From a virus (Duplodnaviria > Caudoviricetes): a DNA stretch of 64,000 bases. Made by a program: the position numbers and the translations under genes. The stretch lies in IMG/VR virus record IMGVR_UViG_3300029288_005873, positions 192,001 through 256,000 of that record; one strand, 5' to 3'. Numbering within the stretch: position 1 is the stretch's first letter; each line of letters starts with the position of its first letter. The notes below the pieces were generated by a model. The model saw only the letters and a program-made list of their open reading frames with translations. It was not told the origin of the DNA and did not search any database. Of the stretch, positions 2,702-49,463 are shown in pieces.

Positions 2702-3316
2702 CTATGGTTCACACTTTGGACAGTAGCGATACGTTGGACCCATTCCAGGATCTTTGATCTGGCAGCCACAGGCTGCGCATGTCGCTCTCCCGTCCGTGTT
2801 CAATGACTTCAAACTAGTCGTCCCAATTGAGTATCCCTTTTTATTCTCAAATAGGAACATCTGAGCACTATTCTCTGGAAGACGGTAGAAAGTTCCGTTT
2901 TTCCGAATACCAAATGTTTTGTTTACCGGCGCACCTAACTTCACTTCCGCCGAGGGCTCACCTGAATATACCTCTACATCATCCACATGAATAAGAGTTA
3001 TGTTCTTTGCCATATCGCGCAAAAGAACATTCACCCACCATGTATTAGGAAGGAAAGAGTCCATAGCCAATATGAAATCGGGATTAATCAATACATAATC
3101 ATCCTTTTTTGGAACCATGGTTGCTCCTGGCAAAAATACGGGAGGATCACTTTCGTCAAACCAGATAAGAGATCCCGTTTTGCTCCAAACATCAAACTCC
3201 TGATTAAGGGGTTTGCCAATCTTTAATCTAGACACGCTCATTATGCTAGGATGATTACAAATATCAATGACTTCTACCGTGTTACCAGACTTTACCAAGT
3301 CATATAATATTGACAT
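2702..3316 (-). CDS. C-terminal Zn-ribbon (CPKCEP) family protein, copy 1
   Basis: Ends LNTDGRATCAACGCQIKDPGMGPTYRYCPKCEP; start uncertain. Confidence 0.75.
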   Translation of the reverse strand: MSILYDLVKSGNTVEVIDICNHPSIMSVSRLKIGKPLNQEFDVWSKTGSLIWFDESDPPVFLPGATMVPKKDDYVLINPDFILAMDSFLPNTWWVNVLLRDMAKNITLIHVDDVEVYSGEPSAEVKLGAPVNKTFGIRKNGTFYRLPENSAQMFLFENKKGYSIGTTSLKSLNTDGRATCAACGCQIKDPGMGPTYRYCPKCEP

Positions 3317-3400
3317 CCAAGGCGAAGGAGTGGAAAAAAGAGTCAAATGGTTAATGAATACGGGATTTACGCGAACCTTCTACCCCTTTACAGGAAGCAT

Positions 3401-3682
3401 TTATAGGCTCCTGACTGTAGCGCCCTTGAACGGCCAACCCACACAAACAAGCAACGTCACACGTCTGCCTTGAGGGTTTTTTCCGCTCACGGTGAAACCC
3501 GCATCATCGCTTTTGCTACAGCCACGGTACTCTAGAAAAAACACAGCCTTGCCTTCGATCTTGACTTCCGTGAACCCAAGGTTTGTTACGGCGCGTACAG
3601 CATGATCTTCATCAACCATATACCCACATCTAGATACTGCGATAGCACAGCATACCAAGATTACCGCCAGAGCTTTTCTCAT
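3401..3682 (-). CDS. putative secreted or lipoprotein
   Basis: Hydrophobic N-terminus, GC..D and VC.G..KGATVR pattern. Confidence 0.6.
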   Translation of the reverse strand: MRKALAVILVCCAIAVSRCGYMVDEDHAVRAVTNLGFTEVKIEGKAVFFLEYRGCSKSDDAGFTVSGKNPQGRRVTLLVCVGWPFKGATVRSL

Positions 3683-4326
3683 TCGTTTCCCCTTTCTTCA
3701 TATTCCCTGATTTTTCCAAACACGCGATCGAAAACATACGGATCATTGATTGTTCCTACAGATTTCTGTCCAGGAATGTCTGTCCACACACGACCGTCGG
3801 GCGATACTCTTGGTTCGCCACATCCGAATTTATCCTCAACAACTTCCATGCCGCTTTGTTCACATTCCCAAAGAAGCTTTTCCCAATTCTTCTTGGCTCG
3901 ACCTCCCCTTACCAATATCCTTGTGGCTGTTTTTCTACCCCACCACAACCCAAACTTGTCAGCATCGCGCCAAACCCAAGGCTGGACCATACACATATCA
4001 TGCCAGATGTCACTAGATACGCGCACATTAATTCTATCTGCTGAGCGAGCATCCATCAGAACATGCCACAACCTCTCCTGGCATGTGCCATTCGTCACCA
4101 TGAATAGTGGTTCTCTGGATACGAACGACGCAATCCCAAGCATTACCAGAAGATCAGGATGTAGAGTGGGTTCTCCTCCGCCTATAGCAATCGGAGAATC
4201 GTACATCAAAGACGCATCAACTGCTTTGCGAAAAGTCTCAATTGACATATCCTTGCCTCTTTTAGAACACGAATAGAGGCAATGTGCGCATGTCATCTGG
4301 CATCTAGAGGTTACCTGAACATACAT
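3679..4326 (-). CDS. radical SAM protein
   Basis: CQMTCAHC, GGGEPTLHP, VTNG. Confidence 0.9.
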   Translation of the reverse strand: MYVQVTSRCQMTCAHCLYSCSKRGKDMSIETFRKAVDASLMYDSPIAIGGGEPTLHPDLLVMLGIASFVSREPLFMVTNGTCQERLWHVLMDARSADRINVRVSSDIWHDMCMVQPWVWRDADKFGLWWGRKTATRILVRGGRAKKNWEKLLWECEQSGMEVVEDKFGCGEPRVSPDGRVWTDIPGQKSVGTINDPYVFDRVFGKIREYEERGNE

Positions 4327-4340
4327 TTAACCACCAATAC

Positions 4341-4703
4341 CTACATTAGAGTGAATGCGATCCGATAGTTTGCGCGACAGCCTTGGAAAAACACTGTAAG
4401 ACTGCCTACGATTTTCTTATCAGAAACCCGAATCACTAGCACAGAAGGTCTGTTGATGAATGCTCCTTCAACACGGAAATGACCACAGGCTAGTTCTCTA
4501 TTGTCTACTGTCTCGATATTGCCAAGAATCGTTCTCGGCGGTTCGGTCGAGCAGTCATGTTTTCTGATCGACGCCAGCGATTTGTATGTGCCAGCCTTGG
4601 CGAAGCACCCAGCTTCGGGGTTTGGAACAACTGTATTAATATCTTTTGTCCCATTCCCAAGGCATGCTGACAAGAATAATACACAAAATACCAACGCCTT
4701 CAT
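4341..4703 (-). CDS. putative lipoprotein (paralog of 5416..5859)
   Basis: MKALVFCVLFLSAC lipobox after AAGGAG RBS; the longer ORF runs through an RNA gene. Confidence 0.6.
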   Translation of the reverse strand: MKALVFCVLFLSACLGNGTKDINTVVPNPEAGCFAKAGTYKSLASIRKHDCSTEPPRTILGNIETVDNRELACGHFRVEGAFINRPSVLVIRVSDKKIVGSLTVFFQGCRANYRIAFTLM

Positions 4704-4713
4704 ATTATCTCCT

Positions 4714-4786
4714 TGGACCAGCGACAGGATTCGAACCTGCGTCCCCAGTCGGTTGACCAGGATCCTAACCTCTAGACGACGCTGGA
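4714..4786 (-). tRNA. tRNA-like RNA / pseudo-tRNA (Glu/Gln-type body, 6-nt anticodon loop, no assignable anticodon)
   Basis: CCAGCG/CGCTGG acceptor, GTCTAGAGGTTAGGAT D arm, GCAGG-TTCGAAT-CCTGT T arm, CCA; loop CAACCG. Confidence 0.65.
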
Positions 4787-5018
4787 AGGTTTCCGTTTTT
4801 CCATAGAGTACAACTGCGTACGTCAGGTTCTTCCATGGCGGAAACAATTCTTGGTTGAGACGATTGACCGCGCACAGTCTCATATCATACAATAGCATCT
4901 TATTTGTGGTGGCAAATTGTCGCTAGCACGGTTTGCGACAACCTGCGAGCCAAAAACTAATGCTATATAATGTGCTAGCCCAAGCACTAGCTGCAGCGGT
5001 ACAAGGTCGCCCGCTTTT

Positions 5019-5369
5019 CTACGGTTCGCACTTTGGACAGTAGCGATACGTTATACCCATTCCAGGGTCTTTAAGTTGACAGCCGCAGACCGCACATGTA
5101 ACCCTCCCGTCCGTGTTCAGGAACTTTAGATTCTTGGCAATCTCTGGATCCTTTTTTTCATTCTCGGCAGAAGCTAATCGAAACCTACTGAAATGCCAGT
5201 GTCCTATCTCTCTATCTTCTTTTTGTTCCCATTTTATGTGTAGCCAAAGTTCATTAGTGTCGTGATACACTACGACACCAATAGTATTGGCGCCAACATG
5301 CATATTATATGCTTCTTTTTCATTCAAAGGGACGACTTTACATCCAATTGGGAAGTCAGAAATGTCCAT
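5019..5369 (-). CDS. C-terminal Zn-ribbon (CPKCEP) family protein, copy 2
   Basis: SH3/KOW-like N-terminus (FPIGCKVV), conserved C-terminus. Confidence 0.75.
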   Translation of the reverse strand: MDISDFPIGCKVVPLNEKEAYNMHVGANTIGVVVYHDTNELWLHIKWEQKEDREIGHWHFSRFRLASAENEKKDPEIAKNLKFLNTDGRVTCAVCGCQLKDPGMGITYRYCPKCEP

Positions 5370-5415
5370 TGTTATTACACCCTATGGGTTTGAATGTAAT
5401 CAAGAACCTACTATG

Positions 5416-5859
5416 TCAGCCTCCAGATTTCTTATGCTGGAGCTTCAGAAGAAGGATTTCGTAAATGGCGTAGCAATCCTGGAAATGGACGGTCATGATG
5501 CCCCTTCCACCATTAGTAGCAAACGCCATAACAATCCTGACGTTAGCTTTCAGTTGGGCGTTGATTTGATTTGTCTCGTTCATTCCACACTTGACCGATT
5601 TCTCGGCAACAAAGGTGGGTGCGGCAAAGTTGTCCAACGGTGCCTTGTCTTGGCATGTCGTTTTTCTCAACTCTCGAACCAGAAGGTACATACCAGGTTC
5701 CATGAAACATGTTGGTTGAGACGTTGGAGCTACAGCTGGTGTATCTGGAACGGTTGTAACAAGAGGTGTGGGAGTAGGAACTGGATTTTGGGTCTTGACG
5801 TGCGCCGCACAGGATACAAACACCAACATTGACAGCATGATTGCGATTTTCATTATCAT
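5416..5859 (-). CDS. putative lipoprotein
   Basis: FVSC lipobox, Pro/Thr linker, CF..PG.Y....R...C shared with 4341..4703. Confidence 0.6.
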   Translation of the reverse strand: MIMKIAIMLSMLVFVSCAAHVKTQNPVPTPTPLVTTVPDTPAVAPTSQPTCFMEPGMYLLVRELRKTTCQDKAPLDNFAAPTFVAEKSVKCGMNETNQINAQLKANVRIVMAFATNGGRGIMTVHFQDCYAIYEILLLKLQHKKSGG

Positions 5860-5868
5860 CTCCTTTGG

Positions 5869-6096
5869 TTAGTTAGCCGCTGGCTTCAACTTTCCCTCTG
5901 CGATCTCAAGCACGACCGTGACCTTTCCCCCCGACTCCAAGTGGCGCACGGCCGAAAATCTCCCATTTCCGATCATGTGTACGATCACCCCAGGTTGTGG
6001 AATAGCCTTCCCGCGCCTGTCGAGCGAAAATAGACGCACGACATCTGGAGCTAGGAAGCTGACCTTGATTTCCGACACTCGCTGCTCATTAACCAT
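5869..6096 (-). CDS. hypothetical protein
   Basis: ORF from MVNEQR with AAGGAG RBS, downstream of tRNA-Arg. Confidence 0.55.
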   Translation of the reverse strand: MVNEQRVSEIKVSFLAPDVVRLFSLDRRGKAIPQPGVIVHMIGNGRFSAVRHLESGGKVTVVLEIAEGKLKPAAN

Positions 6097-6117
6097 TGTA
6101 CCGCTCCTTGTTGTGGG

Positions 6118-6191
6118 TGACCACGGCAGGACTCGAACCTGCATGAAAGCCAATTTAGGAAATTGGTGGTCGTCCTTTGACCCACGTGGCC
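6118..6191 (-). tRNA. tRNA-Arg(CCU)
   Basis: GGCCACG/CGTGGTC acceptor, CCAAT-TTCCTAA-ATTGG anticodon arm, GCAGG-TTCGAGT-CCTGC T arm. Confidence 0.85.
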
Positions 6192-6192
6192 G

Positions 6193-6435
6193 TCAATACT
6201 TTCCTGATAGAAGTGCAAAAAGCGACACAAGTTTTGGATCAATGTGCCACTTATCATCGCCCTCCGACCACCATGGCGCAAGAACATCTGAAGCTACAGA
6301 TTTCAAAGATCTCCTAACGCGCCATGCTTTAATTCCAATCTTTTCGGCAATTTCCTTTGTTGTAAAAACCGTCTGTCCGTCTGAACATATATTGCCCAGA
6401 GCTTCAAAAATCTCAGCTATTAGACGCCGTCTCAT
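6193..6435 (-). CDS. possible winged-helix DNA-binding protein
   Basis: FTTKEIAEKIGIKAWRVRRSLK HTH-like segment. Confidence 0.45.
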   Translation of the reverse strand: MRRRLIAEIFEALGNICSDGQTVFTTKEIAEKIGIKAWRVRRSLKSVASDVLAPWWSEGDDKWHIDPKLVSLFALLSGKY

Positions 6436-6521
6436 TCTTCACAATTCCTAATCTTGGGCTTATGTTCAAGGGCTTTACATGCCATCAAATATACATCTCC
6501 GATAGCAAGATCGAATCTAGG

Positions 6522-6746
6522 TTAGGCAACTGGAGCCGCCAAGTTGACTTTCGTACTAGGAAGCCTGATCGACTTTACACCCCCGAATGATTCAATAGCT
6601 TCTACAAACGCAACCAATGCTTCAATCATTGTTGGTTCTCCGTGGTTCCAGAAATCCAGGTTTCCTTCGAGAGTCGATATATTCTCGATATGTGCGTTCC
6701 ATGAATGCTTCTGTACGCCTCCCTCGACGGTCGATCGTCGCTTCAA
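6522..6746 (-). CDS. hypothetical protein
   Basis: 74 aa ORF; frame ambiguous with overlapping 6622..6873. Confidence 0.35.
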   Translation of the reverse strand: MKRRSTVEGGVQKHSWNAHIENISTLEGNLDFWNHGEPTMIEALVAFVEAIESFGGVKSIRLPSTKVNLAAPVA

Positions 6747-6856
6747 ATTCGTCGTTCAGTAATATCTCCTCGGCTAATCTAAGGAATTCTTGATCATGTG
6801 CTTCATCCAATTCATCCGCAATCGCTAACCTACGGGCACGCAGAAACTGTCTCCAT

Positions 6857-7135
6857 CTACGCTTGATTGCCATTTTCGACCTCAGGAGGTTCTGGGGTCG
6901 GCTCTATGCGCTGTGCGTGCCAGACCTGACCTTTTACCTGCGATTTGTACAGGAAATCCCAGCCAAGCTTAAGCTCGACAACCATTGTACCAGAACACCA
7001 TACCTGTAGGCGTCGCACCTTTGTCTCATTATTCCAGAACAAATAGACCCAATAGTCGCCCGGACTACTCGGCCATCCATCGGTCCATTCAACTTTCATG
7101 TTGACTCTCCTCGTCATGTGGAATTTCAGGCTCAT
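6857..7135 (-). CDS. hypothetical protein (WP..PG.YW motif)
   Basis: Resembles adjacent 7089..7343. Confidence 0.55.
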   Translation of the reverse strand: MSLKFHMTRRVNMKVEWTDGWPSSPGDYWVYLFWNNETKVRRLQVWCSGTMVVELKLGWDFLYKSQVKGQVWHAQRIEPTPEPPEVENGNQA

Positions 7136-7343
7136 CTATCGACATGAACCAGAATGGTCGATCAATCTCCCTCTCCCAAATAAAAGCGCCGTTTCTGGCT
7201 ACAGCAATGCCATTGGCACATTGACGAACACGTACCATACCAATTGACCTAGCCATACCAAAACGTGTCTCGTATTCTGTTCTACCGTAGAACCACCACC
7301 ATCCTTCACGATCTGGCCACCTATTCTTAATCCACATCCACAC
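7089..7343 (-). CDS. hypothetical protein (WP..EGWWW motif)
   Basis: Trp-rich, paralog-like to 6857..7135. Confidence 0.55.
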   Translation of the reverse strand: MWMWIKNRWPDREGWWWFYGRTEYETRFGMARSIGMVRVRQCANGIAVARNGAFIWEREIDRPFWFMSIDEPEIPHDEESQHES

Positions 7344-7722
7344 ACTCTAGAAGCTTCGAGGTTGATGATCCTATGGCGCTTTCAGCCAACCGTTCCATCA
7401 TCACCTTGGCTATCTTTTTCTTCTGACGTGTTGACAACGAAAACGTATTCCACGTCTTGTTTGATTCTATACCGACCGCGATAGTATCATTGATCTCAAT
7501 CCACGCTTCGCTTCTACCCTTTACAAGCCTGACACCTCCGTCAAATTCAATCACAGGATAGTCAGCACCACCCCTATGCTGTAGATGTACCTGACGTATT
7601 GGTAACCAGGACACTTGGTCTATGAGCTGGTCTATCTGAGAACGCATGGGTTTTTTTGCAAATACTAAAGCTCCTGCCGTAAAACCAAGGCAGACACAGA
7701 TTGACGCCACCAGGAAAGACAT
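7327..7722 (-). CDS. N-terminally anchored membrane protein
   Basis: TM helix; paralog of 7734..8132 (Q..WLPI, E.DGG.RL). Confidence 0.65.
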   Translation of the reverse strand: MSFLVASICVCLGFTAGALVFAKKPMRSQIDQLIDQVSWLPIRQVHLQHRGGADYPVIEFDGGVRLVKGRSEAWIEINDTIAVGIESNKTWNTFSLSTRQKKKIAKVMMERLAESAIGSSTSKLLECVDVD

Positions 7723-7733
7723 TTTTCAACTCC

Positions 7734-8132
7734 TTAGGGATTAAGCAGCTTGGTTTCCGCACTAGAAAGTGCCAACTCCGCAACTCTGTTTCTGAATACA
7801 GATCCAAGCTTCACACGCTCATCTGGCGACAGCCCAATTCTCGTTCCCCTATATTCCAAGAAGGCCGAATTGATTGGTTTATCTTCAGCAATTAAGCGGA
7901 TTCCTCCATCCAATTCAAGAATTGGAACAACGGTTCCAACAATCGGTGATCGGGAAGGAAAACCTCTTTCATCACATCTTCTGTGAACTATTCCGGAAAT
8001 TGGGAGCCACTTTGTTTGCTCCAGAAGTTCGTCGAGCGGTTCTTTTTCGTCTCTATCCCGATTTTTGATGCTTACTCCAATTACCCCACCAAATACCAGG
8101 CAGAGTGACATAAGGGCGATCGTCGTCAGCAT
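7734..8132 (-). CDS. N-terminally anchored membrane protein
   Basis: TM helix; paralog of 7327..7722. Confidence 0.65.
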   Translation of the reverse strand: MLTTIALMSLCLVFGGVIGVSIKNRDRDEKEPLDELLEQTKWLPISGIVHRRCDERGFPSRSPIVGTVVPILELDGGIRLIAEDKPINSAFLEYRGTRIGLSPDERVKLGSVFRNRVAELALSSAETKLLNP

Positions 8133-8134
8133 AT

Positions 8135-8983
8135 CTACTCCTTGGCTTCACGCACCATCTCTTCACGCACACTCTCCCATGACATAGAGCACCTATGACA
8201 ACTTGGCACAAACATATCCCTAAACGCCCCATGAAACTGTTTGAATCTGGATCTAAACCCTCCGTTAAGGTAGTTTCCCACCTTATCATATGTCCAGATA
8301 CCAAATGGGCATTTTGAAATCAATCCACCTTCGTCAATTAGGAACTCATACATCCTATCAGGAGCATGACAGTAGCAGCTAAACATCCCAAAAACTGAAT
8401 CCATAGCAAGACTATGCCTGCCAACTGGAATGGGAGGTGACTCGGACCGCTCCTTTGTCGCTACGACATACGGCACCTCAGCTTTATCACATGCCTCTTT
8501 AGCTTTATCGACATGCTTATTTGTGTGCCATTTATCGTATGACAGTGCCAAATATATGGAATCATGACTCTTTAGGAAATCAATAACCCTTCTTCTCAGC
8601 TTTGATCCGCCAGCCCAATCGCCGTTGGACACAAGTCGCATAGCAACTGGTCCCACTGTACTAGCCAAGGTGTTAAGAACATCTTCCCAGTCAGGATTAC
8701 AGAAGAACTCCCCGCCCATAACATTCAGGCGACTAATTTCGTTTGCGACGACAAACTTTGCCACATCACCAGCCATAGCTGGCGTCATGTGATCATTTTT
8801 TCTAGGGTCGCATTCGAAACAGCAATGGGCGCATTTCTGCGTACACTTTGTCGTGATCCTGATTGTTGGTTTCAGACGTCTTGGGCACATGTCCTTTTTA
8901 TCACAGGAATCGCACTTACATGTGCCTGGTCCACCAGGTGCTAGGCATTTCCTCTCCAAGCAGATATCACATGGTGGATTCAT
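8135..8983 (-). CDS. radical SAM protein with Cys-rich N-terminus
   Basis: CTQKCAHC, MGGE, VSNG. Confidence 0.9.
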   Translation of the reverse strand: MNPPCDICLERKCLAPGGPGTCKCDSCDKKDMCPRRLKPTIRITTKCTQKCAHCCFECDPRKNDHMTPAMAGDVAKFVVANEISRLNVMGGEFFCNPDWEDVLNTLASTVGPVAMRLVSNGDWAGGSKLRRRVIDFLKSHDSIYLALSYDKWHTNKHVDKAKEACDKAEVPYVVATKERSESPPIPVGRHSLAMDSVFGMFSCYCHAPDRMYEFLIDEGGLISKCPFGIWTYDKVGNYLNGGFRSRFKQFHGAFRDMFVPSCHRCSMSWESVREEMVREAKE

Positions 8984-9103
8984 CGTTTGCCTCTTTTCCA
9001 GATGCGGAAAATGAAGATAGCCGCAGATGCAAACAAGATCCCACCAGGCAATATAGCTAGAAGAACAATGAGTGCTATGCGGATCATGATTTCTCCACGG
9101 TAG

Positions 9104-9544
9104 CTATTCCCTTTCGGTCACTGGGAGAGTTGCCTCATATTGCTCTAACATAGGCTTTAGCCTACGGTAATCCTCAGATCTGATTGCGGCTCCACATGGT
9201 ATAGATATAATTGGTTGTTGTGTCCTAAACTTGTTTACTTCGACCTTTGTGTTACCTTTCGAGAATAGCCTTTTTGTCTTGAAGATAAGCTGATCAGTCA
9301 TGGTGTCGGTTTTTTCCAACAATTTCTTTGACATAGTATCAATCAGCCAAACAAATCCATTATAAATGGCAAAGGGGCAGATGAATGCGGCAAGTATCGC
9401 ATAACAAGTCATAGTAATGGGCCAAAGAGTTCCCCAAAATGCAGGAAACTCAGCTTTAAGAACCCTTTTCTCGACATTATACATCACAATGGCAATGACC
9501 GAGTAGATCACTGAAAAGAGGAAACCAATTAGAAACGCATACAT
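9104..9544 (-). CDS. membrane protein
   Basis: Two N-terminal hydrophobic helices, AGGAG RBS. Confidence 0.6.
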   Translation of the reverse strand: MYAFLIGFLFSVIYSVIAIVMYNVEKRVLKAEFPAFWGTLWPITMTCYAILAAFICPFAIYNGFVWLIDTMSKKLLEKTDTMTDQLIFKTKRLFSKGNTKVEVNKFRTQQPIISIPCGAAIRSEDYRRLKPMLEQYEATLPVTERE

Positions 9545-9568
9545 TATTCTTCTCCTATTGAACCAACC

Positions 9569-9979
9569 TCAAGGTTCGCACTTGGGGCAGTATCGATACA
9601 TCAAACCCATTCCAGGGTCTTTAAGCTGGCAGCCGCAGGCTGCGCATGTTGCTCTCCCGTCCGTGTTCAAAAACTTTAAGTCTTTGGTTATACCAGATTT
9701 GCTGACCTGGAGGAAAAGCGACGGCGCATTGAACATATTATCCGCCATTTTCCAATATGCCCCAGAGACTTCTTTGATGGCTATGCCAGCAAGATATTGA
9801 AGCTTTGGTTCCAAAACAACCAAGATACTTCCCTTATCTTCCTCGTGCTCTTTTATATTCTTTACAGCAAAGGTTCCTTCGTGATTGAATAGATACCTTA
9901 GCTCGGGCGCATATTCTTCTTTCGCTTTTGCCTCAGGATTCACAACAACACTATCCCCGACTTTGGGAATGTAGTTCAT
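9569..9979 (-). CDS. C-terminal Zn-ribbon (CPKCEP) family protein, copy 3
   Basis: YIPKVGDSVVVNP N-terminus; conserved C-terminus. Confidence 0.75.
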   Translation of the reverse strand: MNYIPKVGDSVVVNPEAKAKEEYAPELRYLFNHEGTFAVKNIKEHEEDKGSILVVLEPKLQYLAGIAIKEVSGAYWKMADNMFNAPSLFLQVSKSGITKDLKFLNTDGRATCAACGCQLKDPGMGLMYRYCPKCEP

Positions 9980-10014
9980 GTTATTCTCCCCATAGGATCC
10001 CAGAACCCATCATT

Positions 10015-10410
10015 CTATGGTTCACATTTTGGACAGTAACGATACATCAAACCCATTCCGGGGTCCTTAAGCTGGCAGCCGCAGGCTGCGCATACCGTCC
10101 GCCCATCCGTGTTCAGGGATTTCAAGTTCTTGTTGGAACTTGATTTTTCGCCAGCAGAAAAAAGAAAGAGCGAGGGAGGATTAGACATATGTCTTGCGGC
10201 ATTCCAATAAGCACCGGTATTGCGACATATGGATATGCCTCTACCATTCTCCAAGACCACAACAATATGACCAGGATTATGTGTATGGTCATGTACCTCA
10301 ACAACAGTCTCATTTTTAATGACTCCTGGAGATGGTCTATACTCCCAATCTAAAGCTTCAGCTGCCGGATTTATGTCCACCACATCCCCAACCTTTGGAA
10401 TGTATGCCAT
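10015..10410 (-). CDS. C-terminal Zn-ribbon (CPKCEP) family protein, copy 4
   Basis: Start re-assigned to MAYIPKVGD; conserved C-terminus. Confidence 0.75.
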   Translation of the reverse strand: MAYIPKVGDVVDINPAAEALDWEYRPSPGVIKNETVVEVHDHTHNPGHIVVVLENGRGISICRNTGAYWNAARHMSNPPSLFLFSAGEKSSSNKNLKSLNTDGRTVCAACGCQLKDPGMGLMYRYCPKCEP

Positions 10411-10424
10411 GATTTTTTCTCCCA

Positions 10425-10982
10425 CTATGGCTCGCACTTTGGGCAATGCTGATATTTTGGACCGAGACCGATAGGGATCTTCAGCGGACCACCGCATTTG
10501 GCGCAGATCGTTGCGCCAAGTTTTGTGTTAGAATCCCTGAGCTCAACAGGACTCAGACCATCGGTCGAAAATACATCTACGCTTTCCAGAAAACGAGGAT
10601 CAAATAGATTGTCGCGCGCCTCTACCTCTCGCTCTGCCATAGCAATAGCACAAGGAAGTTCTTCTTTTGTATACAACCCAGCGTACTTTGCCCACAAAGA
10701 ATTGTGAAACAAAGTACCTTGTACCGTCCATATTGCTGAAATCTTGTGGCTTTTTGCCAATGGGGATAATGGAGCAGGAACTACTTGAACTCGTTCTCCT
10801 GGATTTAGAATCGGCCATAGCCAGATTTTTGGAATATGTAACGGATGATTGTTTGTCAGATCCCACAAGCCCTCGAGAAATACCGTATCATCCCATATCT
10901 CAGTTACCAGATATGGACGAACAGGAGGATGCCCTATCATTGATGCATTCACTAATACTTCCATACCTTTTTGCAGTATCAT
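10425..10982 (-). CDS. C-terminal Zn-ribbon (CPKCEP) family protein, copy 5
   Basis: Ends CAKCGGPLKIPIGLGPKYQHCPKCEP. Confidence 0.75.
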   Translation of the reverse strand: MILQKGMEVLVNASMIGHPPVRPYLVTEIWDDTVFLEGLWDLTNNHPLHIPKIWLWPILNPGERVQVVPAPLSPLAKSHKISAIWTVQGTLFHNSLWAKYAGLYTKEELPCAIAMAEREVEARDNLFDPRFLESVDVFSTDGLSPVELRDSNTKLGATICAKCGGPLKIPIGLGPKYQHCPKCEP

Positions 10983-13948: not shown

Positions 13949-14526
13949 TCAGATCTTAGTCAACTTGTACTTGACTCCTTCGATCTCGACCACTTTCCCT
14001 TCGCAGGTGGACGGCCCTTGACCGTTTTCTTCGTACTTCCAGTCATCCACAATGGGATTGTTCCCTTCCCACCTAATCTCAGCTTCTTTTCCAAATTCCG
14101 AGATCACCACTTCGTAGAATAGGATTATCCCTTCAGCCCAAAGCTTATTGCTTTCGGCATAAAGTTTTTCACCCTCAGCGAAGAATCTGCGACCTTCAGC
14201 ACAAAGCTTGTCACACTCAGCACGAACTTTGTCGCCCTCAGCAAGAAAGCCGCTGCCTTCGGCACAAAGTTTATTGCCTTCAGCAAAAAGCTTACACCTT
14301 TCGACACGAAAGTCTCCACCTTGTTCACGAAGCTTGCGACCTTTAGCCCATAACTTATCGCCTTCGGTGTAGAGCCTTTCTTTTTCGATAGTTAGTTTAT
14401 TACCCTCATTACAGAGCCTAATGCCTTCGGCACGAAGTTTGTCACCTTCGACACGAATTTTTTTTCGCCTTCGGTGTAAAGTCTACACCGTTCATTATAG
14501 GCATTTTGGATCTTTTGGTTGTACAT
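13949..14526 (-). pseudogene. heptad (EGxKLxA) repeat protein, frameshifted at an A8 tract; paralog of 37768..38184
   Basis: Starts MYNQKIQNAYN; after one added base continues through 21-bp repeats to TCEGKVVEIEGVKYKLTKI*; not in the ORF track. Confidence 0.8.
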
Positions 14527-15286: not shown

Positions 15287-15605
15287 TGAGCCCAGCAGGA
15301 TTCGAACCTGCGACCAACTGGTTAACCTGCCACACTTGCTTTCACAAGCCAACTTTTCGGAGTTGTTGTGGTCTGGACCATATCTTCACCCTCAACATTA
15401 CTTGGTCGGGTGTTCTGCTCATGGCCTCTGAGGACTCCCAAAATATTCTGGGTTGCCTGCGGATTATCCAATCTTTAACATTTTTACTCATAGTGAGTAG
15501 TTAAAGCTCTAAGGACGTTCCCGCATATCGCAGAATTCATTTCATATATTACTATATGAACGCTCCAATCGAAGCCAGTTGCTCTGCCAACTGAGCTATG
15601 GGCCC
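15287..15605 (-). tRNA. tRNA-Lys(UUU), intron-containing (exons 15572-15605 and 15287-15325)
   Basis: GGGCCCA..ACTGG-CTT^TTAA-CCAGT..GCAGG-TTCGAAT-CCTGC-TGGGCTC-A. Confidence 0.93.
15326..15571 (-). ncRNA. group I intron in tRNA-Lys anticodon (34/35)
   Basis: P1 GCUU^C/GGAGC with U.G at the splice site, R CUCAGAGGCCA, S AAGAUAUGGUCC, terminal G. Confidence 0.9.
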
Positions 15606-17993: not shown

Positions 17994-18033
17994 GACATCC
18001 TCCGCCGACCAAAAGGTCGATTGTCCACAGGAA

Positions 18034-18064
18034 AAAACATCCGCGGAATTTTTTCGCTGCAAAA
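18034..18064 (-). promoter_or_regulatory. conserved 31-bp promoter-like motif, copy 1
   Basis: TTTTGCAGCGAAAAAATTCCGCGGATGTTTT; near-identical at 45296 and 49426. Confidence 0.65.
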
Positions 18065-18071
18065 GATCTTT

Positions 18072-27257: not shown

Positions 27258-27261
27258 TAGT

Positions 27262-27637
27262 TGGACGTGCCGGAAGTCGAATCCGGGTCCGCAACATCTT
27301 GATCGTGAAGTCATCCACATGCTTGGTTTCCATTTACTATTCCAGCAGGCGGGAAACGCGCCCATACTGAAAAGACCCATTGAGGCATTTTCGGTGGAAG
27401 TCTCAGGGTTTGAGTAGCTTCCTTAGTAGCCTCTCCCTACAATCCCTGTCCGATGACGCCGATCCCCAGAGTCACAGGGCCGGAGCCCGAGGTCAGCGGA
27501 TGCTAGGCAGCTGCCAGCATCTGGTTCGCGTTGTTGTTCGCGTTTGTTGTCTGTCCCAGTTTTTTCATGGCAGCCTGGAACACCTGCCAGCATGCACTCC
27601 AGTCTCTCAATACCACGTCGATACCAAATTCACGCCC
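27262..27637 (-). ncRNA. ssrA: tmRNA, tag ANNNANQMLAAA* (27503-27541)
   Basis: 5' GGGCGTGAA..TCGAC, 3' GGACCCGGATTCGACTTCCGGCACGTCCA, G3.U70 pair, GCATG/CATGT helix, tag ending LAAA. Confidence 0.95.
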
Positions 27638-31823: not shown

Positions 31824-32203
31824 TCCGCCTCCAGAAAACGCTCCGCCATCTGGACCAGATATCTATCCCCCTCAATAGACGGTTTCTTGTGCCTTTTGAT
31901 CAGTTTCCACCAGTCGCCGATATTACCAGCTTCTGCGTAGTGGATTATGGCAACCTTTTCAGGCTGCCCGAATTGGGTTGACGTGATGTCGATGATCATG
32001 TCACCGAAAAGAACGAACCAGTGCCCAAGACCTTCGCCAATCTCTGTGGTGATTCCGTTTTCCTTCGCCAGCTTCCACAGAAATTCCGAAGCATCGAGGC
32101 ATAGTCCGCCGAGATCTGACGGCCATCTGTCCTCTTCCGCCACACGTTCGAAGGCCCTTCGAGCCCTCCACGCCAACTTCTCCAGCCTCTTGAGGTCGTT
32201 CAT
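31820..32203 (-). CDS. transglutaminase-like (papain-fold) protein
   Basis: Putative Cys-His-Asp triad: GLC, GHWF, IDITSTQF. Confidence 0.6.
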   Translation of the reverse strand: MNDLKRLEKLAWRARRAFERVAEEDRWPSDLGGLCLDASEFLWKLAKENGITTEIGEGLGHWFVLFGDMIIDITSTQFGQPEKVAIIHYAEAGNIGDWWKLIKRHKKPSIEGDRYLVQMAERFLEAE

Positions 32204-32985
32204 GGACGAGCCTCCTCCGTCTGCTGTTGCTCCGCCAGGATCTTCTCGAACTCCTCCTTGGCGATATTTGTTGTTTTGTCGTGGAGATTTGACGGAGAAT
32301 CACTGATGTACATCTTTTCCCACCACGGTCCGATTTTTCCAGCTTCCACCAGCGGCTTGACAGCCACCCTATCGGGTTGACCAAATTGGGTGGATGTTAC
32401 GTCGATCACGAAGTCACCATACATTACGAAATAATGTCCCACACCTCCGCAGACTTGTGTATCGATCCCGCGCTCGACCGCAACAGCATGGAGGAACTTG
32501 GAGGCATGGTAGCATAGACCGGTAAGATCTTTGTTCCATGAGTCCCTCTCAGCTGTACGTTCGAAAGCTGTGCGAACCTGATACGCCAAGGCGATCAGAT
32601 TCTCCATGTCGAAGGAGATCTTGTCAAACTCATCTTCCGCCCATTTCATCGCCATGCTGTTCTGAGGAATGAAGAGAGTTTTCGACAGCAGTTTCCACCA
32701 GTCACCGATCTTTTCGGCTTTCTCCAGCGGCATTACGGCAACCCTGTCAGGCTGACCAAACTGGGTCGACGTGATGTCAACCACGATGTTTCCATCGTAT
32801 AGAATAAAGTAGTGACCGCTGCCTCTGCCGATTTCCGTGGTGATTCTATTGTCGGCTGCGATTTTGTGGAGAAGGCATGATGCGCAGTAGCACATGCCAT
32901 AGAGATCATCTGACCAGCCCTTTGCCTTTGACACCCTCTCGAATGCCATGCGAAGCTTCCAGGCGATTTCGATCAGCTTATCCAT
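32200..32985 (-). CDS. tandem transglutaminase-like domain protein
   Basis: Two copies of G.C..AS, GHYF, D.TSTQFGQPDRVAV. Confidence 0.6.
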   Translation of the reverse strand: MDKLIEIAWKLRMAFERVSKAKGWSDDLYGMCYCASCLLHKIAADNRITTEIGRGSGHYFILYDGNIVVDITSTQFGQPDRVAVMPLEKAEKIGDWWKLLSKTLFIPQNSMAMKWAEDEFDKISFDMENLIALAYQVRTAFERTAERDSWNKDLTGLCYHASKFLHAVAVERGIDTQVCGGVGHYFVMYGDFVIDVTSTQFGQPDRVAVKPLVEAGKIGPWWEKMYISDSPSNLHDKTTNIAKEEFEKILAEQQQTEEARP

Positions 32986-37757: not shown

Positions 37758-37767
37758 GGTCGTTCCT

Positions 37768-40888: not shown

Positions 40889-41096
40889 CGTTTCCTCCTT
40901 GGAATCTTCGGGCGTTGCCCTTGAAAACCTCAATACTCTGTGGGTCTCAAGGGCAGCCCCCGAAGGGCTGCTTAAATTCACTATCGTATTTTGGAGTCAC
41001 CGCTTAGTGCCAGGTCATACCATTCCTCTTCAGGTTAGGTTTTTCCTATTCGCACATGCGCTTCTCGCAGTTCTAGACGTGAATTTTTGAAGCTAC

Positions 41097-41364
41097 AACC
41101 TAGGGCCAGGTCATACTCTTTCCCTCGTTAGCAGGCTTTACAACTCATACCATATACACCTATATGGTACACACATACGCTTATATAAGTTTTAAACATG
41201 AATTTGGAGTTATAACCTAGGGCCAGGTCATACCTTTTCCCTCGTTAGCAGGCTTTACAACTCATACCATATACACCTATATGGTACACACATACGCTTA
41301 TATGTTTTAAACATGAATTTGGAGTTATAACCTAGGGCCAGGTCATACCTTTTCCCTCGTTAGC
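41097..41364. repeat. AT-rich tandem repeat, 115-117 bp unit x about 2.3
   Basis: AACCTAGGGCCAGGTCATAC at 41097, 41214 and 41329; internal TACCATATA/TATATGGTA palindrome. Confidence 0.92.
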
Positions 41365-41559
41365 GTGGATTTTGGGGTCTCTCCATTCGCCCATGCGCTT
41401 CTCGCAATCTTTGATGCTAAACAAAGACAAGAAACCACAGGTTACTTCGGGTGCTCTCGCCACGGCATTTGGTTTTTCCTTACGGGCATTAGTGCCCAAC
41501 TGCCTATGACTTCGATATACAAACTTCCCCTCGGGTCCTGCCTGCTGCCTCCCCCTCAG

Positions 41560-41655
41560 TGGCACCAAGTGGGTTTGAACCACCAGCCCTCTCTGTCCGA
41601 GAGTCGGATACTCGGGACCGGAGCCCCGGTTGCCCGCCCCTGTGGCGGTGGTGCC
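41560..41655 (-). ncRNA. 96-nt tRNA-like RNA downstream of rpsL
   Basis: GGCACCA/TGGTGCC acceptor + A, GGTGG-TTCAAAC-CCACT T arm, three or more internal hairpins, no 7-nt anticodon loop. Confidence 0.65.
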
Positions 41656-41715: not shown

Positions 41716-42120
41716 CTACTTCTTCGCCCGCTTCACCCCGTACTTGCTCCTGCTCTGGTTCCGGGGGTTCTTCTCACCACCGTTGCGGACCGTGTCTCCC
41801 GCAGCATCCGTCCCCTTGGCACCACGCACGATGTGATACTTCACACCGGGCAGGTCCTTCACCCTGCCGCCCCTGATCAGCACCGTCGAGTGCTCCTGCA
41901 GGTTGTGCCCGATTCCCGGGATGTACGCGATCACCGTGATCCCGTTCGACAGCCTCACCACCGCCACCTTGCGGTTCGCGGAGTTCGGCTTCTTCGGACC
42001 GACGGTGTACACCCTCAGGCACACACCCTTGCGCTGCGGACATCCCTGAAGCGCTGGCGCCTTGGATTTGTTCGCCAAACGCTTCCTACCTTGCCTCACC
42101 AGCTGGTTGATCGTCGGCAT
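41716..42120 (-). CDS. rpsL: 30S ribosomal protein S12 (uS12), phage-encoded
   Basis: [53 protein letters not shown]; GGAGG RBS. Confidence 0.97.
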
Positions 42121-42442
42121 CTCCGTCCTCCTCTTCCTGAAGCATTGCGTCGATTTCCTCGATTTCATCCTCCGAGACACCATTGTCCAGGAGGATTTTC
42201 CTCATTTCCTCGATACTACACTCCTCGAGCACGATCTCCCTGCGATCACCCTTCTTCGCAAGGATGTGGTCCAGCTCCTTCTCATGCTTCGCCGCCTCGT
42301 GCCGCAGACGGTTGACGCACGAAAGAAGCTTCTCGTTCTTCACGTGAGCCTTCTTCAGAAGATCCATCATCTCCTCGGCCATCGATGATACCGTTGATAC
42401 CGCATCCAGACGCTCCGTGACCGAACTCGAATTCGAACCCAT
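42086..42442 (-). CDS. coiled-coil acidic protein overlapping the rpsL start
   Basis: 118 aa ORF, AAGGAG RBS, directly after twister 1. Confidence 0.65.
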
Positions 42443-42481
42443 CGCTCATCTCCTTATCGGGCTGTAATCCTCACGTCCCTT

Positions 42482-42545
42482 TCCATCCCTCTGCGTTTTC
42501 ACGGGCTTGGGACCGTCGTCCCTTTGGGACGGCCGCATTGATGGA
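42482..42545 (-). ncRNA. twister ribozyme (type P1), copy 1
   Basis: UCCAU-CAA-UGCG-GC-CGUCCC/GGGACG-ACGG-UCCCAAGC-CCGU-GAAAA-CGCA-GAGGG-AUGGA. Confidence 0.9.
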
Positions 42546-42790
42546 GCCCGCCTAGCGCCTGGATGCGCATCGGCGGGCGGCACGGATATGTGCCTTGTGC
42601 GCTCCCCAATTGTATGATCCGCATGTCGGGGAATGTCTTCCTCTCGCTTAGCGGGGAAGCTCTGTCCCATGCGGACCGCCCCATGTAGACTGTCCGCTAG
42701 CTGGGGCGCAAATGCCAGCGGACCAAGTATGCTCAAATAGTGACGGGAATCTCATTCCCTCATCCCTTCTGATGCTGTAGCTATCAGCAC
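42546..42790 (-). ncRNA. candidate large pseudoknotted RNA ending at twister 1
   Basis: Intergenic; at least six stems and two loop-to-downstream complementarities (CGCCCCA/UGGGGCG, UCCCC/GGGGA). Confidence 0.5.
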
Positions 42791-42801
42791 CTATTTTTTC
42801 G

Positions 42802-43224
42802 TTAGTTCATCTTGGCGTCCATGGCGGCAACAACATCTGCCGCCATCTCCTCTACCGCCTTGTCGATCCCCATCTCATCGATCATCTCTTGGGCGCTGTC
42901 AGACAGACACATGACATTGACACCCTCCGGCACTAGGTCCAGGTCCTCCTCAGTGAAGAACCCAGCCTCGACCTTGGCGCGGTTCGGAGAGGCTAGGACC
43001 AAGTCCCTGTTGGGCATCTCCACCAGAATGCCGTCGTCCATCAGCTCCACAACCGCATACAGCATCTGTGACCGTCCGAGATCGTCCGAGCACATGTCGC
43101 AGAGCACCTCGAACGAGAAAGGCGCTTTCCTGCCCTCCACCAATCCGAACAGGAAAGCCTCCAGAACCTGGCTCCTCATTGTCTGATACCCGAATATCGC
43201 CTCTTCCGTCCTGTAAATCTTCAT
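42802..43224 (-). CDS. hypothetical protein (possible winged helix)
   Basis: 140 aa ORF, ATGA overlap. Confidence 0.6.
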   Translation of the reverse strand: MKIYRTEEAIFGYQTMRSQVLEAFLFGLVEGRKAPFSFEVLCDMCSDDLGRSQMLYAVVELMDDGILVEMPNRDLVLASPNRAKVEAGFFTEEDLDLVPEGVNVMCLSDSAQEMIDEMGIDKAVEEMAADVVAAMDAKMN

Positions 43225-43986: not shown

Positions 43987-44016
43987 AAAAGCCCCCCAGG
44001 AGGTATTCTGGGGGCT
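43987..44016 (-). terminator. intrinsic terminator
   Basis: GC-rich stem AGCCCCCAG../..CTGGGGGGCT followed by a T run on the minus strand. Confidence 0.75.
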
Positions 44017-44053: not shown

Positions 44054-44260
44054 CTACGTCCCCGCCGTTTCCGCAGCCTCATTGAGGGCTCGGGAGATCC
44101 TTTTGCTGAGCTGGGTCGGGGTCATATTCTCCAAGGCTGCCTCCAGGAGGTTGCCTGCTGCTTCGAGGAGGGTTCGTGTTACGCGATCAAGTTCCAGCTC
44201 GGCGATTGTCCACGTCTCCGCCATCATGGTAGCGACGCTTTCCCTCTGCTCTTTGGTCAT
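44054..44260 (-). CDS. small helical protein
   Basis: 68 aa ORF, AAGGA RBS, directly after twister 2. Confidence 0.65.
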   Translation of the reverse strand: MTKEQRESVATMMAETWTIAELELDRVTRTLLEAAGNLLEAALENMTPTQLSKRISRALNEAAETAGT

Positions 44261-44284: not shown

Positions 44285-44349
44285 CCCCACCCCTCCGCAT
44301 TTGCACGGGCTTGGGACCGTCGTCCCGAAGGGACGGCTGCGTTATGGGA
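44285..44349 (-). ncRNA. twister ribozyme (type P1), copy 2
   Basis: UCCCA-UAA-CGCA-GC-CGUCCC/GGGACG-ACGG-UCCCAAGC-CCGU-GCAAA-UGCG-GAGGGG-UGGGG. Confidence 0.92.
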
Positions 44350-44417
44350 GGGGCGCGAGGCGCCCCTTTATGTAGGACCTCCGGTCCTTGGTAGGGGAGT
44401 TGTAGAGCTTCTAGCTC

Positions 44418-44882
44418 TTAGTCGGTGGTGGGGCGCTCGGCGGGGCGGTCGTCGTCCCAGGTATCGGAGCCGATGGCGACGACGGAGCAGCTGAGCTGGA
44501 GGGCGAGACCGGCGACAGTGGCTTTGCCGTTGGCGTAGAAGCCGCACTTGCCGGAGGCGAAGATACGGGCGGTGGCGACGGTCTGGTCGATTTTGAGGGA
44601 CTTGAGGGTCTGGGGCTCGAGGGCGAGGAACTTCTGGATATCCTCGTCCTTGAGGCGTTTGGGGTCATCGGGCTTGGAGTGGGCGAGGGTGACGTTGAGG
44701 GAGACCTGGAAGGTCTTGGGCTCTCCGGCGACGTCGAGGGTGACCTTGCCGTTGTGGTTGAACCCCACCGAGCCGGTGGAGTTGGTGCGGGGCTCCATGG
44801 CACCGACGCCCAGCTGCTTGAGGCTGATGCTGCCCATGGTCAGGACGTCGCTCTTGAACCCCTCGGTCTGCTTCTTCGACAT
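44418..44882 (-). CDS. tandem FxTGSxG-domain protein between two twister ribozymes
   Basis: Paralog of 29477..29947; strongly C/G-ending codons; AAGGAG RBS. Confidence 0.75.
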   Translation of the reverse strand: MSKKQTEGFKSDVLTMGSISLKQLGVGAMEPRTNSTGSVGFNHNGKVTLDVAGEPKTFQVSLNVTLAHSKPDDPKRLKDEDIQKFLALEPQTLKSLKIDQTVATARIFASGKCGFYANGKATVAGLALQLSCSVVAIGSDTWDDDRPAERPTTD

Positions 44883-44923
44883 GGTACATTCTCCTTCGGG
44901 ACCTTTGGTCCCATGTTAGGGTT

Positions 44924-44988
44924 GCGCCCCTCTGCGTTCGTCCGGGCTTGGGACCGGCGCCTCACCATTGAGGCGGCCGCATTGGCGC
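44924..44988 (-). ncRNA. twister ribozyme (type P1), copy 3
   Basis: GCGC-CAA-UGCG-GC-CGCCUCA/UGAGGCG-CCGG-UCCCAAGC-CCGG-ACGAA-CGCA-GAGGG-GCGC. Confidence 0.9.
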
Positions 44989-45086
44989 TGGAGGGGTTGA
45001 GTATCAGAGCCCCCTCCGGGCTCCGGGGTTGGGCCAGGCTATGCGCCCCCTTCCAACCACTGGCGGCGTCCCGCCAGATGAGATGT

Positions 45087-45266: not shown

Positions 45267-45295
45267 CCTTGGCAGCGATTTTCCCTCGCGGGTTC

Positions 45296-45326
45296 AAAAC
45301 ATCCGCGGAAATTTTTCGCTGCAAAA
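45296..45326 (-). promoter_or_regulatory. conserved 31-bp promoter-like motif, copy 2
   Basis: TTTTGCAGCGAAAAATTTCCGCGGATGTTTT. Confidence 0.65.
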
Positions 45327-45396
45327 ATTTTTCATCCATCGCGCAGGATCTTACTGTTCCGGGAAACTCCTGTGGCAATTACCTCATTTGAGCCTC

Positions 45397-49374: not shown

Positions 49375-49425
49375 CTCGCTCCCCTTTCCGCTGCCTTGCC
49401 TCAAGGCGCAAGGCTGGCAAGGTTC

Positions 49426-49456
49426 AAAACATCCGCGGAATTTTTCCGCTGCAAAA
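49426..49456 (-). promoter_or_regulatory. conserved 31-bp promoter-like motif, copy 3
   Basis: TTTTGCAGCGGAAAAATTCCGCGGATGTTTT. Confidence 0.65.
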
Positions 49457-49463
49457 AAATTTT

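Follow-up and report, generated by a model that had tools for sequence, protein, structure and literature searches.

Two twister ribozymes of type P1, here called T3 and T2, bracket one gene of a huge phage and probably trim a longer transcript into a short linear mRNA that carries this gene alone and provides a very abundant protein. The elements concerned are given below in the direction of transcription, with the third twister of the window in last place.

45291-45332 (-): repeated intergenic motif of repeat family D12, also present upstream of the 154-aa gene in relatives
44989-45076 (-): conserved pseudoknotted non-coding RNA directly 5′ of T3, with no Rfam family
44924-44988 (-): T3, upstream type-P1 twister, Rfam RF03160 at 59.5 bits (E 2.8e-12), with covariation
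[quoted passage not shown]
44898-44912 (-): 5′-UTR hairpin between T3 and the RBS, seen in sequence and in the fold
44891-44896 (-): Shine-Dalgarno (SD) sequence AAGGAG, the sole one in the 640-nt piece linked to an ORF
44418-44882 (-): 154-aa gene of no named family, with extreme codon bias and a ~65-aa beta-rich domain in two tandem copies
44374-44418 (-): two small 3′-UTR hairpins, 44418-44404 and 44388-44374, seen in sequence, the second also in the fold
44349-44367 (-): strong GC hairpin, a stem-loop of the twister P0 type, which ends 5 nt short of the T2 cut
44287-44348 (-): T2, downstream type-P1 twister, Rfam RF03160 at 60.6 bits (E 1.3e-12)
44054-44260 (-): 68-aa gene, starting 30 nt past the T2 core; a terminator-like hairpin lies behind it at 43993-44014
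42483-42544 (-): T1, third twister, cut at C42540^A42539

The window, the whole stretch of 64,000 nucleotides analysed here, corresponds to C1:192001-256000 of a 441,904-bp virus record that carries near-terminal direct repeats, tRNAs, a tmRNA and a group I intron. Within the window, the phage tmRNA was found at 27259-27637 (-), the group I intron at 15356-15581 (-), adjoining a tRNA-like 3′ end, and a tRNA with undefined anticodon at 4716-4786 (-). The stretch is present in DNA from landfill metagenomes, and in the source-like DNA run X1 two overlapping contigs match the window with no difference. For comparison, 13 distinct lineages with DNA, the window counted in, were scanned with Rfam and a custom model; protein identity among these related lineages is 55-71%. 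A search of viral_contigs by protein and by DNA pattern returned no relatives.

The gathering score of RF03160 is 67.2 bits. T2 and T3 lie just below it, so that a default scan missed both, and they were recovered as full-length matches by an Rfam search with an E-value threshold; the L004 orthologue of T2 passes the cut-off with 67.6 bits. With E values of about 1e-12 on the minus strand, these matches bear out the preliminary description, in which the gene was flanked by two twisters. We observed that 91.5% of the cells were paired in an alignment of 24 twister copies from this phage group (94–98% for P2, P4 and the pseudoknots T1 and T2), with compensatory changes at 16 of the 21 pairs, both pseudoknots among them, a result matched in 0 of 500 shuffles. 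The columns of the cut-site A (general acid), of the second A and of the general base G were invariant. T3 and T1 carry a C at position -1, which natural twisters tolerate (PMC11662667). Judged by their sequences, T2 and T3 are very likely active ribozymes. Motifs, cut positions and conservation can be read from the DNA; cleavage in vivo is inferred. Beyond T1, T2 and T3, no twister was detected in the whole 441,904-bp record.

T3 is predicted to cut at C44984^A44983, leaving the entire catalytic core (44983-44924) on the released RNA, and T2 at U44344^A44343, leaving just 5 nt of T2 on it. The distance between the two cuts is exactly 640 nt, as had been described, and this piece indeed holds a single SD-led ORF, since the ATG at 44882 is the only start with an SD match among all starts of at least 30 codons. 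In 7 loci, 35–45 nt separate the end of the upstream core from the ATG, and this interval usually includes a hairpin as well as a strong SD; an equivalent of the 5′-UTR hairpin is present in most relatives, including L016, which is without a flanking twister. Together, the same-strand T1, T2 and T3 delimit two pieces, the one-gene piece and another of 1,804 nt. The latter, running from T2 to T1 (44343-42540, -), holds several genes and would have the same end chemistry, given read-through of the 43993-44014 terminator. T1 itself is located after a structured RNA and before a 118-aa gene and rpsL; the structured non-coding stretch reaches up to the T1 cut (42800-42540, -), with a z of -3.7 for 42440-42810.

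The 154-aa ORF has 23 homologues with 48–87% identity and sits in a similar phage gene neighbourhood across relatives. Its GC3 is 0.93 for a genome median of 0.37, and by four measures its codon bias exceeds that of all 163 other ORFs of 120–200 codons; the strong bias noted beforehand thus places it at the top of 164 ORFs of similar size and implies a protein that is presumably abundant. The product gave a confident structure model (pLDDT 91). Its ~65-aa beta-rich domain occurs singly or repeated in several hundred unnamed proteins, and one unnamed 65-aa Atlas cluster matches a single domain (TM 0.80 by target). Searches of the protein against Pfam, PHROG and NCBIfam provided no match, and searches of the model against PDB, VIA-wide (best Z 3.5) and BFVD no clear fold match. 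A CFA/I fimbrial match was rejected, with no passing stretch or weak ones only.

Downstream of the gene we found the 3′ hairpins already reported, three in number, the last with -16 kcal/mol. This last hairpin proved to be a constant feature: each of the 10 intact downstream twisters is preceded, 0–5 nt from its cut, by a hairpin of -13.8 to -17.3 kcal/mol, which corresponds to the known P0 stem-loop. Behind six of these 10 twisters, an SD-led ORF is absent within 150 nt, and these six therefore define the mRNA 3′ end of the 154-aa gene. A terminal hairpin with a short tail shields linear bacterial RNA against 3′ exonucleases. In human cells, the upstream fragment of Tornado is cleared more slowly when it bears a cyclic phosphate (PMC13622603).

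The non-coding RNA directly 5′ of T3 was analyzed over 8 copies (window, L004, L010, L011, L014, L016, L022 and L025). It is ~90–120 nt long with 48 invariant columns, and shows 98.9% pairing with compensatory changes in three helices. Besides an H-type pseudoknot, it contains a hairpin with a GACG cap and another stem whose loop reads GCAYA. It usually terminates at a twister cut and, because it lies directly 5′ of T3, T3 would also form its 3′ end. The unit of non-coding RNA and twister precedes other genes as well in L011, L016 and L025, while in L005, L011 and L014 the upstream twister of the 154-aa gene is not directly joined to the non-coding RNA. A search of Rfam gave no match for this RNA; HDV-like, pistol and tRNA-like readings, judged by eye, did not fit. 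Possible identities are a riboswitch, a ribozyme or a protein-binding RNA, in each case undescribed, and it may exceed the twister bracket in novelty. Further upstream, the D12 motif has other copies in the window at 18029-18070 and 49421-49462, with four more copies of its core elsewhere in the genome; a count of the core gave six copies, all on the minus strand. It is a candidate for a phage-specific promoter or operator heading the transcript.

We then considered how far the bracket is conserved. Both twisters are intact in 7 of the 13 lineages (window, L004, L022, L011, L007, L010 and L014). Two lineages have the upstream twister only: L005, with a truncated downstream copy, and L025, in which the upstream twister is divergent and the downstream copy consists of its tail, followed by the contig end. 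Three have the downstream twister only: L012, whose upstream twister is decayed with its cut site lost, L018, and L015, where the upstream twister is absent from 209 nt of upstream DNA. L016 has neither. Decayed remnants persist in L005, L012 and L025. In the protein tree, lineages with both ribozymes fall to either side of the midpoint root, and L005, which has kept the upstream twister alone, groups as sister of L011, which has the pair, with support of 96/89; losses have therefore taken place more than once. The pair is thus old and common, not obligatory. Despite one or both missing twisters, GC3 remains at 0.97–0.99 in L012, L016 and L018; the codon bias is less extreme in L005 and L015. 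As a separate observation, the near-identical L009 and L012 differ upstream of the gene by an inverted hairpin loop, that is, by micro-inversion in GC hairpins; such events can yield chance complementarity of 5′ and 3′ regions, such as a 17-bp match in L007.

The most likely model, that of linear processing, would run as follows. Transcription would start near the repeated motif at 45291-45332, and T3 would cut co-transcriptionally, completing the 3′ end of the upstream pseudoknotted RNA. The 5′-OH end of the mRNA would then be buried in the folded ribozyme body, ahead of the hairpin and the RBS. Protection by a 5′-OH depends on the host nucleases: it helps against RNase E, and the glmS 5′-OH product is degraded in Firmicutes. 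T2, acting in the role of a terminator, would cut behind its P0 hairpin and give the mRNA a 3′ end made of the hairpin, a tail of 0–5 nt and a cyclic phosphate, which may stabilize it; the same cut would release the message of the 68-aa gene, ending at the terminator-like hairpin 43993-44014. Either ribozyme can be lost in this model, because each end protects or insulates independently. Processing of polycistrons is a standing proposal for bacterial twisters (PMC6765202). Two observations run against a purely linear mRNA. Seven lineages spread across the protein tree keep both ribozymes at the same gene, a retention that fits selection on the pair, but also selection on each end separately, and the 3′ end can pair over 9–10 bp with the upstream core in window, L004 and L022.

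The preliminary description had proposed that the 640-nt piece may be circularized into a nuclease-resistant mRNA. For this, host RtcB or a phage set of kinase, 2H phosphoesterase and Rnl2-like ligase would seal the ends; pairing of 44356-44348 with 44932-44924 would bring the ends near each other and deprive the rebuilt twister of its general-base strand, so that the circle persists and is translated from its one RBS. We consider such a circle unlikely, although the part of the proposal that concerns end chemistry stands: a 5′-OH with a 2′,3′-cyclic phosphate is the right substrate, Tornado circles do form in E. coli with native RtcB (PMC12628768), and retrozymes are persisting circles that contain ribozymes (PMC11722881). 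The absence of a ligase gene from the window, as first described, holds, and the genome encodes one elsewhere, a PF09414 Rnl2-like RNA ligase (C1:148459-148947, 53 bits). In addition, the phage has a stand-alone AAA_33 kinase (C1:128098-128499), similar to the kinase domain of Pnkp, and, within a 709-aa frame, a 2H domain (C1:394652-395068); this set makes a heal-and-seal route possible. The three enzymes are nevertheless 88–158 kb from the locus, the phage has many tRNAs that they could repair, and since huge phages carry tRNA-ligation genes (PMC7162821) they are explained without a circle. The RtcB gene that had been suggested for a search was not found in the phage genome by a search whose control was positive in 10 of 14 genomes, and searches of the phage for T4 Rnl1 and Pnkp-ligase gave no match, with equally silent controls. 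As to the pairing, the 9-bp complement joins the 3′ arm of the P0 hairpin plus one base (44356-44348) to T3 (44932-44924). Complements of 9–10 bp between end and core exist in window, L004 and L022, L010 having 6 bp with another segment, and pseudoknot-free folding prefers this pairing in window, L004 and L010. The folding model, however, omits the twister pseudoknots, which oppose it; the pairing is missing from L007, L011 and L014, and window, L004 and L022 form one clade. At each of 6 loci, end pairing stayed inside the shuffle range, and the cognate 5′/3′ sum (-48.2 kcal/mol) equalled the permutation mean (-48.2 kcal/mol), with 51% of permutations as good. A further difficulty is the junction. 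The upstream P1-type core is retained and ligation rebuilds the cut site; the junction is therefore again a substrate, and a circle sealed by a repair ligase would restore a cleavable twister and tend to reopen. Reopening might be slow, as P1 at the junction is mismatched in 7 of 7 loci (1–2 of 4 positions pair) and as twisters with P0 stem-loops cut less (mean fraction 0.40 versus 0.85; PMC11662667). But twisters without P1 cut at near wild-type rate (PMC5408937, PMC11662667), and because P1 is dispensable the ligated junction stays cleavable; the mismatch thus argues against viroid-type self-ligation and gives a circle no protection. Moreover, six of the 13 lineages are without an intact pair, their codon bias mostly intact, the strong hairpin before 10 of 10 intact downstream twisters is typical of a linear 3′ end, and circular and spliced products were sought for hammerhead-flanked prophage genes and went undetected (PMC3088659). 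The back-joint of 44344 to 44983 was absent from four DNA runs, as expected for DNA. Overall, the sequence evidence leans against a circular mRNA. The circle, if true, would be a circular mRNA that codes for a protein and is produced naturally, by ribozymes and a ligase, in a DNA phage; the literature that we searched contains no report of one.

Three other explanations were weighed against trimming into a linear mRNA. The bracket might be a mere by-product, T3 finishing the non-coding RNA and T2 giving the next gene a fresh 5′ end, with the 154-aa gene sitting between them to little benefit. The cores of all three twisters of the window do finish 30–45 nt before a start codon, and the RNA-twister unit ahead of differing genes in L011, L016 and L025 would fit. 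We hold this for quite improbable all the same: the upstream twister stands apart from the non-coding RNA in three lineages (L005, L011 and L014), and the six downstream twisters without an SD-led ORF behind them all have their hairpin facing the 154-aa gene. Degradation follows glmS cleavage and 3′-UTR twisters can alter reporter expression (PMC6765202); the cuts could accordingly destabilize the message or tune expression down, for instance by uncoupling downstream genes or exposing a 5′-OH to exonucleases. The codon optimisation of the gene, the highest in its size class, and the conserved protective hairpins at both mRNA ends make such a role very unlikely. That the unit is a mobile RNA element resembling a retrozyme or viroid and inserted into the phage genome is hardly credible. 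Same-class ribozymes in the same orientation do bracket a unit of 630–730 nt, and the truncated copy in L005 suggests that duplications occur. The unit is nonetheless present in a single copy in the genome, T2 and T3 differ in P1, P2 and P3 with no longer shared direct repeat (61% to the reference in repeat family D6), P1 is not rebuilt at the junction, and the gene stays in a similar phage neighbourhood.

The order of ribozyme, hairpin and RBS at the mRNA 5′ end is that of RiboJ-type synthetic insulators; here it occurs in nature, is built on a twister and goes with a 3′ end likewise generated by a ribozyme. The layout of a ribozyme-flanked gene itself is known in phages since 2011, when hammerheads flanking single prophage genes were described, with cleavage shown and single-gene mRNAs proposed (PMC3088659). 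Both cases have several same-strand ribozymes around one gene or a short block in phage (PMC3088659). In contrast to the hammerheads, whose flanked genes are not constant, the twisters studied here surround one orthologous gene in 7 of 13 lineages and come with a constant 3′ hairpin. New features are a bracket that has stayed with an orthologous gene, a 3′ hairpin that is constant, and natural variants with a single ribozyme. The roles of self-cleaving ribozymes of bacteria and phages are still largely proposals, and this locus, where an orthologous gene has two, one or no flanking twisters depending on which of the 13 lineages is considered, offers an unusually clean natural test set. The ribozymes share with described type-P1 twisters (RF03160, PMC11662667) the core stems, both pseudoknots, the general acid A and the general base G, and T2 also the upstream P0 hairpin; they differ by the scores of T2 and T3 just under the gathering cut-off and by the C at -1 of T3 and T1. 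The likeness to Tornado, which had been invoked for an RtcB substrate, extends to the 5′-OH and cyclic phosphate and not to the design. Tornado uses a 5′ P3 twister with a tRNA-like homology arm (PMC13067282) and a designed stem that aids ligation (PMC13622603), whereas the 5′ ribozyme here is of P1 type, its core remains part of the cargo, and the search for a selected ligation stem found none. Retrozymes and viroid-like RNAs (PMC11722881, PMC6765202) are likewise units bound by two same-class ribozymes with ligatable ends; the present unit differs by its single copy and its conserved phage gene, and by the absence of both long terminal direct repeats and a rebuilt P1.

Ribosomal protein genes were also noted around the twisters. 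The window encodes a phage uS12 at 41716-42120 (-), with a TIGR00981 score of 192.6 bits, over the cut-off, and an insertion of ~10 aa. Its best cellular matches reach 74% and come from unrelated phyla, and ~17 metagenomic homologues of similar length rank higher; PMC7162821 lists ribosomal proteins of phages, and S12 is not among them. Ribosomal protein L7/L12 is found in the twister-punctuated cluster of relatives (L005 5822-6337, L012 4880-5392 and L014 15769-16365), in L012 directly behind the downstream twister. Finally, several repeats were observed elsewhere in the window: an intergenic repeat of 115–117 nt in three to four copies at 40990-41364, downstream of a tRNA-like element (41559-41655); a family of five dispersed copies of ~40–128 nt at 2702-10463; a coding repeat with a 21-nt period at 14117-14457, with a paralogue at 37763; and a family of three copies ~400 nt apart at 31901-32789.
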